64,000 nt of DNA from a virus (IMGVR_UViG_3300012979_000001:35375-99374); one strand, 5' to 3'. Shown: positions 38,124-38,341, numbered from the stretch's first letter. Made by a program: numbers and translations. Notes: generated from the letters alone by a model not told the origin.

Positions 38124-38152
38124 TTGACAAAGCTTTGTCATTGTGCTATAAT
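38124..38152 (+). promoter_or_regulatory. palindromic-box promoter
   Basis: TTGACAAAGCTTTGTCATTGTGCTATAAT; preceded by terminator 38082-38109. Confidence 0.65.
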
Positions 38153-38209
38153 ATAAGTAGATAGGGGAAATATCTCTATCTAGGCATTGTCGCATAAGGG
38201 AGGATTTAA

Positions 38210-38245
38210 ATGAACTTAATCAATAATCCACCAATCTTCTTATAA
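38210..38245 (+). CDS. leader peptide MNLINNPPIFL (11 aa) with strong RBS in the 5' leader of ORF 38342
   Basis: AAGGGAGG 6 nt before ATG; followed by a 12-bp stem TATAATAGTAGG/CCTACTATTATA. Confidence 0.3.
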   Translation: MNLINNPPIFL

Positions 38246-38341
38246 TAGTAGGCTCTGTACAAACCAAGTGCGGTTAGCACAATCGAGGATATATTCCTAC
38301 TATTATAGGAAGACAAATCATTTTAGAGAGAGGTGAATTTT

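Follow-up and report, generated by a model that had tools for sequence, protein, structure and literature searches.

The question raised by this locus is whether two short leaders of a phage act through the peptides that they encode or through the RNA itself. Both lie in a window of 64,000 nucleotides (nt) of viral DNA, i.e., the whole stretch analyzed here (IMGVR_UViG_3300012979_000001:35375-99374, one strand), and an earlier note had read them as a pair of arrest-peptide leaders, in which translation of a mini-open reading frame (mini-ORF) would attenuate the genes that follow. Comparison with related phages gave a different answer. As judged by covariation, the first leader, here named RNA1, is a previously undescribed family of conserved structured RNA, whose general type, that of structured leaders containing a mini-ORF, is known, and on the same comparative grounds the second leader, RNA2, is an RNA element unrelated to the first and not its partner in an arrest-peptide pair.

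The window has a GC content of 28.8% and belongs to an AT-rich phage that is also rich in transfer RNA (tRNA), with 20 tRNA genes spanning 27.6-37.7 kb. Near the leaders are genes for a HAD/PNKP-like phosphatase, a metallophosphoesterase, and a kinase-phosphatase-RNA-ligase of 753 amino acids (aa) that is Pnkp-like. A blastn search against GenBank phages gave no relative, and the Pnkp homologues of the nearest cultured phages were only 35-40% identical. Syntenic relatives, with Pnkp 62-82% identical, were obtained by protein-guided searches of IMG/VR, JGI, ENA, and Logan assemblies; leader 1 is represented in them by 14 distinct sequences (15 when L121 is counted) and leader 2 by five. Below, W stands for the window copy, and L-numbers stand for related phage contigs. 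The parts of RNA1 in the window, with helices as predicted, are the following:

38124..38152, + strand: RNA1 promoter (TTGACA, 17 nt, TGcTATAAT; 12/12 with the TG)
38158..38317, + strand: RNA1, conserved structured leader RNA of ~160 nt (covariance model R1)
38158..38182, + strand: P1, 5'-terminal hairpin (TAGATAGGG / CTCTATCTA), which starts at the predicted transcription start and includes ATAGGGGAAA
38183..38191, + strand: P1b, small hairpin GGC-AUU-GUC (UGAC-UUA-GUCA in relatives)
38196..38232, + strand: P2, Shine-Dalgarno/AUG hairpin, where GGAGGATT (38199-38206) pairs with the anti-Shine-Dalgarno AATCCACC (38225-38232)
38210..38245, + strand: mini-ORF 1, MNLINNPPIFL, with its stop TAA inside the 5' strand of P3
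38235..38313, + strand: P3 domain, 18-base-pair (bp) stem (38235-38252 with 38296-38313) that encloses a conserved apical region
38268..38280, + strand: P4, apical hairpin GTGC-GGTTA-GCAC, with an invariant GGUUA pentaloop (38272-38276)

The promoter, with a predicted transcription start at ~38159, holds the perfect palindrome TGACAAAGCTTTGTCA (38125-38140), an operator-like motif common to most promoters of the phage. In P2, the Shine-Dalgarno AAGGGAGGA (38196-38204) is placed in the stem and the AUG (38210-38212) in the loop. Across the homologues, this pairing is predicted between GGAGGAUU and AAUCC(A)CC, again with the AUG looped; the duplex energy ranges from -5.4 to -8.5 kcal/mol, and the Shine-Dalgarno is mostly paired (probability unpaired 0.11-0.25 in 12/13). 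AAGGGAGGA lies 38 nt from the 5' end of RNA1 and P1 sits at the predicted +1, both being kept in all the homologues. A conserved AAACC (38261-38265), found as an AAACY motif across the homologues, precedes P4 on the 5' side. A stem after mini-ORF 1 had been claimed before with 12 bp, and it does exist there, but with 18 bp and around a conserved apical domain of 43 nt. P3 ends at 38313, and the Shine-Dalgarno of the next gene (~38325-38333) is unpaired. No U-tract was found beside P3 and no terminator was called there; the candidate reading of P3 as a terminator was ruled out because the U-tract is absent. A tRNA-like ACCA end at AATCCACCA was likewise ruled out, as the CCA is not conserved (L008, L093, L095, L098-L101). 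The whole leader measures 189 nt, versus 20-60 nt as typical in this phage.

Because helix lengths vary among the homologues, alignment by MAFFT with RNAalifold was unusable and was replaced by a covariance model, R1, generated from two near-identical sequences, with the rest re-aligned. The model-based alignment contains 12 sequences, and 14 homologues were folded singly and unfitted. The window copy scored 103 bits with R1 (E = 5e-21) and had a fold energy z-score of -5.2; those of the homologues ranged from -1.1 to -5.1. The single-sequence folds contained P1, P2, and P3 in 14/14 homologues and P4 in 8/14. In the model alignment, 95% of the cells were paired, versus 40-45% when the partners were slid by 1-3 columns; double changes were observed in 26 of the 40 pairs, and none of 500 shuffles reached the observed score. 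At the level of single helices, 8/10 pairs of P1 and 15/17 of P3 had changed on both sides, with 95.6% of the P3 cells paired, and P1b (helix 2) was 100% paired, its variation being limited to G-U/A-U. Seven variants of the P4 stem surround the invariant loop (GTGC/GCAC, ATGC/GCAT, TAGC/GCTA, ATAC/GTAT, ACTC/GAGT, ATTC/GAAT, and ATGC/GCAA); six are fully complementary, and the last has an outer A·A. RNAalifold gave the same helices plus a short extra one, in agreement with the unfitted single folds.

The distribution of RNA1 is narrow. R1 detected exactly one copy per phage and none in a phage with Pnkp only 53% identical. Rfam 15 gave no match at E <= 10 within 37900-40700, for either leader, and when the window was scanned at gathering thresholds, no non-tRNA family reached its gathering score. 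A motif scan with the P4 region over 185,579 genomes returned 73 matches, all attributed to chance; in IMG/VR, four of the five matches were chance ones, and the fifth (L017) was the L001 contig itself. One of the chance matches falls within a penicillin-binding-protein gene. A composite motif (Shine-Dalgarno, anti-Shine-Dalgarno, and GGTTAG) retrieved from IMG/VR only the contig that was already known.

Next, the coding capacity of RNA1 was compared among the homologues. The consensus promoters claimed ahead of both leaders are present (38124-38152 and 40349-40377, both of sigma-70 type with an extended -10, 12/12 with TG), and so are the mini-ORFs with their ribosome-binding sites, MNLINNPPIFL (38210-38245) behind AAGGGAGGA and MRRPIFPLIW (40396-40428) behind GGGGA. 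In leader 1, the Shine-Dalgarno is strong in all the homologues, Shine-Dalgarno and AUG are kept together in 13/14, and the AUG stands exactly 5 nt past the GGA of GGAUU in 12/14, in a P2 loop that is otherwise variable (7-20 nt). From this pattern, initiation at mini-ORF 1 seems to be selected, with the constraint acting on the spacing between Shine-Dalgarno and start and not on a loop motif. In 14/14 homologues, the end of the mini-ORF falls inside or beyond the 5' strand of P3, 5-35 nt from the first P3 nucleotide; a ribosome translating this ORF must therefore open P3, and initiation followed by invasion of the P3 stem is plausible at this leader. Translation, as proposed in the earlier note, is thus plausible for leader 1, where Shine-Dalgarno and AUG are conserved, and does not extend to leader 2, where the start is not.

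The peptide itself drifted freely. Among 14 homologues, 12 different leader 1 peptides of 9-20 aa were predicted: MNLINNPPIFL in W, MNYFQSIPTFL in L008 and L092, MHLKKSTIF in L004, MIFHKIHHFLQ in L013, MIFQKQSTKSSCIK in L009, MHLKKIHHLLSKLYIN in L001, MYLLLIQKTFRNI in L093, MCLIHLNNTRGNS in L098, MVIQNPPSSLKSSV in L096, MVIKNPPSSLKSSV in L097 (a K-for-Q variant), MLNSPKCTKRIMVTDITTLG in L099, and MCLIHRKENRNNSH in L101. The conserved block AATCCACC is read in all three frames, as N-P-P, I-H-H, or S-T depending on the lineage, and a one-A difference in a homopolymer run puts the otherwise near-identical L001 and L004 in different frames and alters the peptide. The peptide is therefore not the conserved element. 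As AATCCACC is conserved whatever the frame, Pro-Pro is, on this comparison, a by-product of the anti-Shine-Dalgarno sequence, and regulation by an arrest peptide or EF-P is not supported. The Pro-Pro taken earlier for a stalling motif occurs only where the frame reads CCACC as Pro-Pro (W, L096/L097), and the supposed shared P-I-F core is not conserved among the homologues.

The second leader has a different organization, and its units in the window are:

40349..40377, + strand: RNA2 promoter (TTGACA, 17 nt, TGcTATAAT), without the operator palindrome
40384..40494, + strand: RNA2, candidate stand-alone short transcript of ~110 nt with its own promoter and intrinsic terminator
40504..40532, + strand: operator-type promoter of the next operon (a 167-aa protein, then the Pnkp-like kinase-phosphatase-ligase, 41066-43327)

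RNA2 contains mini-ORF 2 (40396-40428, MRRPIFPLIW), an invariant CATTAATTTG (40415-40424), and a terminator with a 16-bp stem plus U6; the strong intrinsic terminator (40444-40494) and the new promoter behind it (40504-40532) are as the earlier note had described them. The unit is present in five lineages (W, L092, the L001 group, the L009 group, and L013) and absent from seven relatives (L003, L093, L095, L096, L098, L099, and L101). Where present, its promoter, ACGAAKGA, AAUAU...CAUUAAUUUG, and the 16-bp terminator are conserved, the latter as a hairpin whose sequence drifts. Mini-ORF 2 is not conserved: the ATG is changed to AGG in the L009 group, only five codons (MRKKI) are left in L092, and the frames differ by lineage, so the versions found are MRRPIFPLIW, MRKKI, MKSKIYFINLFYI, MRNKYISLIWFILFI, or no ATG. 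The Shine-Dalgarno is absent in L001 and L013, and the GGGGA of the window would fall at +2 to +6 of the RNA2 transcript. Because ATG, Shine-Dalgarno, and ORF length vary and the unit is missing from seven relatives, leader 2 is not a leader peptide; RNA2 is best read as a predicted small non-coding transcript, an accessory unit of a sub-clade. The candidate reading of leader 2 as a diverged RNA1 copy was ruled out by the single R1 copy per phage. Inspection by eye for seed complementarity of RNA2 to window sequences and to the AAACY motif of RNA1 gave nothing convincing, with no covariation and no target. A similar layout (consensus promoter, short transcript with a hairpin and U-run, and an operator palindrome before a gene) is found at 62720-62870 and 45829-45925; in the first of these, 62749-62845 carries the stem AGCAGGAAAGA...TCTTTCCTG followed by a T-run, and both units are possibly further small early RNAs of the RNA2 type.

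The box ATAGGGGAAA, claimed to be shared by both leaders, does have two exact copies in the window (38161-38170 and 40382-40391; there is no third), but the sharing is at chance level and the box is absent from all the relatives. The chance of a shared 10-mer in segments of the leader lengths was P ~0.04 with composition shuffles and ~0.12 with random pairs of window segments. The predicted transcripts also give the two copies different roles: the box makes up the 5' arm and loop of a covarying hairpin in leader 1, and it straddles the predicted start and is itself the putative ribosome-binding site in leader 2.

The surroundings of RNA1 were then analyzed on both sides, and the adjoining units are:

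37080..38104, + strand: GOLLD-like giant non-coding RNA unit (promoter 37051-37079, terminator 38079-38104)
38342..38650, + strand: first structural gene, 102 aa, of no known family, heading the operon

Downstream, the 102-aa gene is followed by those for a 217-aa protein, the HAD/PNKP-like phosphatase, and the metallophosphoesterase. HNH/NUMOD4 genes stand between RNA1 and the conserved 104-aa gene in three lineages (the L001 group, L093, and L095), and a 95-aa gene does in L099, L101, and L121. Given these inserted genes, and a P3 that does not contain the next Shine-Dalgarno, control of an adjacent ribosome-binding site by RNA1 is unlikely. The HNH/NUMOD4 homing-endonuclease genes are directly downstream of RNA1 (L001:4246-4527, L093:308-589, and L095:797-973), which suggests repeated homing into the conserved RNA1 region or its flank. 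Hairpins 3' of RNA1 occur in L013 and L096 and are not scored as terminators; an antitermination reading based on them is weakened, as the scanner calls no terminators there.

Upstream, a permissive Rfam scan of 36600-38160 matched GOLLD (RF02032) at 37521-37995 with 85.3 bits and E = 2.8e-22, covering model positions 1-416/416; the match was missed at the gathering threshold, the gathering score being 150. A tRNA-Asn (37596-37668) is embedded in the match. The same arrangement of GOLLD match and tRNA was found in L098 (1743-2208, 72.9 bits), with E across both matches of 1e-18 to 1e-22, and a tRNA lies 450-750 nt upstream of RNA1 in L009, L013, L096, and L101, a position like that in W and L098. 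The GOLLD structure has been solved, and to our knowledge, no function has been assigned to this RNA. The RNA1 unit, with its own promoter, begins 20 nt past the terminator of the GOLLD-like unit. GOLLD is phage-borne, found near tRNA islands and sometimes with a tRNA in its linker, and it has been reported to bind ribosomes in pull-down assays (PMC12286853).

The reading that we tentatively favor, with a probability somewhat short of even, is that RNA1 is a structured leader gated by the ribosome and that it would determine how stable the operon messenger RNA (mRNA) is or how it is processed. What would matter is the act of translating mini-ORF 1 and not the peptide product. RNA1 would be transcribed from an operator-type early promoter as the 5' end of an operon with RNA-repair-type phosphatases, and a ribosome passing the partly masked Shine-Dalgarno would unwind P3/P4, so that the leader could alternate between being open, with a ribosome on it, and being folded, with the GGUUA hairpin on display. 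P1 and the ribosome-bound strong Shine-Dalgarno near the 5' end would behave as a Firmicute-type 5' mRNA stabilizer, and the long P3 duplex may be a processing or recognition site, either a substrate of the RNase III type or a site for a protein partner of the P4 loop. These effects would concern the transcript of the whole operon, not translation of the adjacent gene.

Several observations weigh against this proposal. L095 lacks an ATG and offers just a TTG, at 9 nt, and the +2 control frame is likewise free of stops in 10/14 homologues, so that an ORF kept open until P3 makes a weak test of selection. The covariation counts rest on an alignment fitted to the model, and both P2 arms are nearly invariant, giving no covariation for or against P2; we infer the pairing of Shine-Dalgarno with anti-Shine-Dalgarno from a 3' arm that is conserved regardless of the frame. 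The Firmicute-type host is likewise inferred, from the promoters alone, RNase III cleavage of P3 is a conjecture, and neither the invariant GGUUA loop nor the AAACY motif would be required in a pure stabilizer.

That both mini-ORFs encode regulatory or arrest peptides (Pro-Pro/EF-P, P-I-F core) that attenuate the downstream genes is, of all the explanations considered, the one we hold to be extremely improbable. It drew on mini-ORFs with ribosome-binding sites in the window, on the hairpins behind them (an 18-bp stem for the first, a terminator for the second), and on the Pro-Pro of W and L096/L097. The leader 1 peptides, however, are unconserved in sequence, frame, and length, with a frameshift splitting near-identical phages, and as to leader 2, the ATG is gone in the L009 group, L092 retains only 5 codons, L001 and L013 have no Shine-Dalgarno, and seven relatives have no such unit at all. 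With neither a downstream Shine-Dalgarno nor a U-tract, P3 is neither an erm-type sequestering hairpin nor a terminator; the independent promoter after the leader 2 terminator means that this terminator cannot gate the next gene, and the shared box is at chance level. On these comparisons, the arrest-peptide model, and with it the attenuation proposed earlier, is largely refuted. A riboswitch or another leader that senses a ligand or tRNA, with sensing by P3/P4 and P2 serving as expression platform, would account for the length and structure of the leader, its conserved internal-loop nucleotides, and the masking of its Shine-Dalgarno, and is nonetheless very unlikely: there is no Rfam match at E <= 10, the masked Shine-Dalgarno serves an unconserved mini-ORF and not a regulated gene, no terminator/antiterminator alternative is present, and the element is confined to a narrow clade, being absent from the phage with the 53%-identical Pnkp and from the rest of IMG/VR.

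A competitor that we regard as unlikely is a stand-alone trans-acting RNA or a scaffold for binding protein or RNA, possibly a GOLLD companion, in which the Shine-Dalgarno-like sequence and AUG would be structural or ribosome-binding and untranslated. The strongly conserved fold speaks for it, since nothing in cis explains the invariant GGUUA loop and AAACY; so do the position of RNA1 directly behind the GOLLD-like unit in W and L098, the upstream tRNA in L009, L013, L096, and L101, and a downstream neighbor that varies (HNH genes, the 95-aa gene, or the extra hairpins of L013 and L096). The reported binding of GOLLD to ribosomes in pull-downs (PMC12286853) would also fit. Yet no terminator follows RNA1 in the window or in most relatives, the L013/L096 hairpins not being scored as such, and RNA1 is therefore physically the 5' untranslated region (UTR) of the operon; moreover, the fixed spacing of Shine-Dalgarno and AUG in a loop of variable length points to a constraint on initiation. 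RNA1 could also be an operator whose P4 GGUUA is bound by an operon product or an early regulator, for autogenous control of translation or stability after the manner of T4 RegA or gp32, or of lambda N with boxB. An invariant pentaloop carried by a stem that covaries is what hairpins recognized by proteins typically show, and the linkage to the same operon is conserved; but the operon products contain no detectable RNA-binding domain, the structure predicted for the 102-aa protein had too low a confidence to be used (predicted local distance difference test, pLDDT, 53), and P4 lies ~60 nt from the downstream ribosome-binding site, with whole genes between them in some lineages, which leaves this explanation rather improbable. 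A long shot is that RNA1 is a ribosome-engaging switch acting with the GOLLD-like RNA, tRNA, and the RNA-repair module; as an example, it might sense or exploit the translation capacity of the host early in infection, with GGUUA docking to GOLLD, tRNA, or a ribosomal component. If true, this would be the first functional handle on GOLLD-associated biology.

The promoter of RNA1 belongs to a stereotyped class of the phage, tttccayctaacTTGACAAAnnTTTGTCAnTnTGnTATAAT, with >14 copies in the window. Most consensus promoters carry the palindrome TTGACAAANNTTTGTCA in overlap with their -35 and spacer, with ~20 sites and 40 strand matches versus ~1 expected (e.g., 5694, 13833, 14490, 26223, 38124, 40504, and 45829; also 4983, 30200, 45907, and 62853), and it also occurs solo, downstream of some promoters. 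This palindrome resembles an operator through which a dimeric regulator would govern the whole promoter class. Two other long non-coding leaders stand behind consensus promoters, at 4641-5042 (~400 nt), with a 5'-terminal hairpin at its start and G-rich runs inside, and at 33126-33585 (~460 nt), with repeated tacctgt motifs; neither has an Rfam match. In the relatives, the Pnkp-like gene is broken after ~472 codons by an identical frameshift in two contigs (L001:8001-10263 and L002:1814-4076), and a 472-aa protein cluster, P0051 (54 members), fits this truncation; a genuinely split gene, programmed frameshifting, and an assembly error common to both contigs are all conceivable causes. L098, a more distant clade member, carries a transfer-messenger RNA gene (L098:296-647, 126 bits), and L093:7974-10049 encodes a UvrD-like helicase with an intein (Intein_splicing match), the window helicase being split or shorter (44035-45144).

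Collectively, these analyses replace an arrest-peptide reading that would have misled with an undescribed RNA family with strong covariation, whose anatomy combines a start codon with a freely drifting peptide, a Shine-Dalgarno predicted to be masked from within its own ORF, and a long stem with an invariant loop. In a clade of large uncultured phages, the family is placed where a GOLLD-like RNA, a tRNA island, and RNA-repair genes meet, and RNA1, a conserved and putatively ribosome-binding neighbor of GOLLD, offers a concrete mutable element for reporter tests. The case also indicates that Pro-Pro and like motifs in AT-rich mini-ORFs can be by-products of constraints at the RNA level.

When RNA1 is set against known systems, a close likeness is to the 5' stabilizers of Gram-positive bacteria, where a strong Shine-Dalgarno near the 5' end, whether or not a short ORF goes with it, is combined with a 5'-terminal hairpin, and the presence of the ribosome counts, not the peptide (PMC3997798). 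With cryIIIA STAB-SD, the ermC/ermA leader, the hbs 5' UTR, and the SP82 polypurine stabilizer, RNA1 has in common the strong Shine-Dalgarno, the 5'-terminal hairpin, and the long operon leader; it differs in a Shine-Dalgarno partly masked by a predicted internal anti-Shine-Dalgarno and in the large P3/P4 domain with an invariant loop. We know of no 5' stabilizer with a conserved domain and invariant loop of this kind. Like ermC, cat, MifM, SecM, and TnaC, RNA1 has a short upstream ORF with its own ribosome-binding site before a stable hairpin that a ribosome could open, but it has no conserved peptide or arrest motif, its hairpin does not hold a downstream Shine-Dalgarno, and whole genes can be inserted behind it. 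Hairpins processed by RNase III are found in phage early transcripts such as the T7 early region, the lambda N leader, and SP82 early RNA; RNA1 resembles them in a near-perfect duplex of 17-21 bp between the promoter-proximal leader and the coding region, whereas a conserved apical hairpin and conserved internal-loop sequences, as in RNA1, are not known from such sites. RNA2 is similar to Rho-independent trans-acting small RNAs in its own promoter, ~110 nt length, invariant single-stranded CAUUAAUUUG, strong terminator, and lack of a conserved ORF, and differs from them in that no target was found, its 5' stem shows little conservation, and many relatives do without the unit. Finally, the upstream neighbor is like GOLLD RNA in being phage-encoded, beside a tRNA island, with a tRNA in its linker and a full-length match to the model, although its 85 bits fall under the gathering score of 150, and RNA1 is a separate transcription unit behind the GOLLD terminator.

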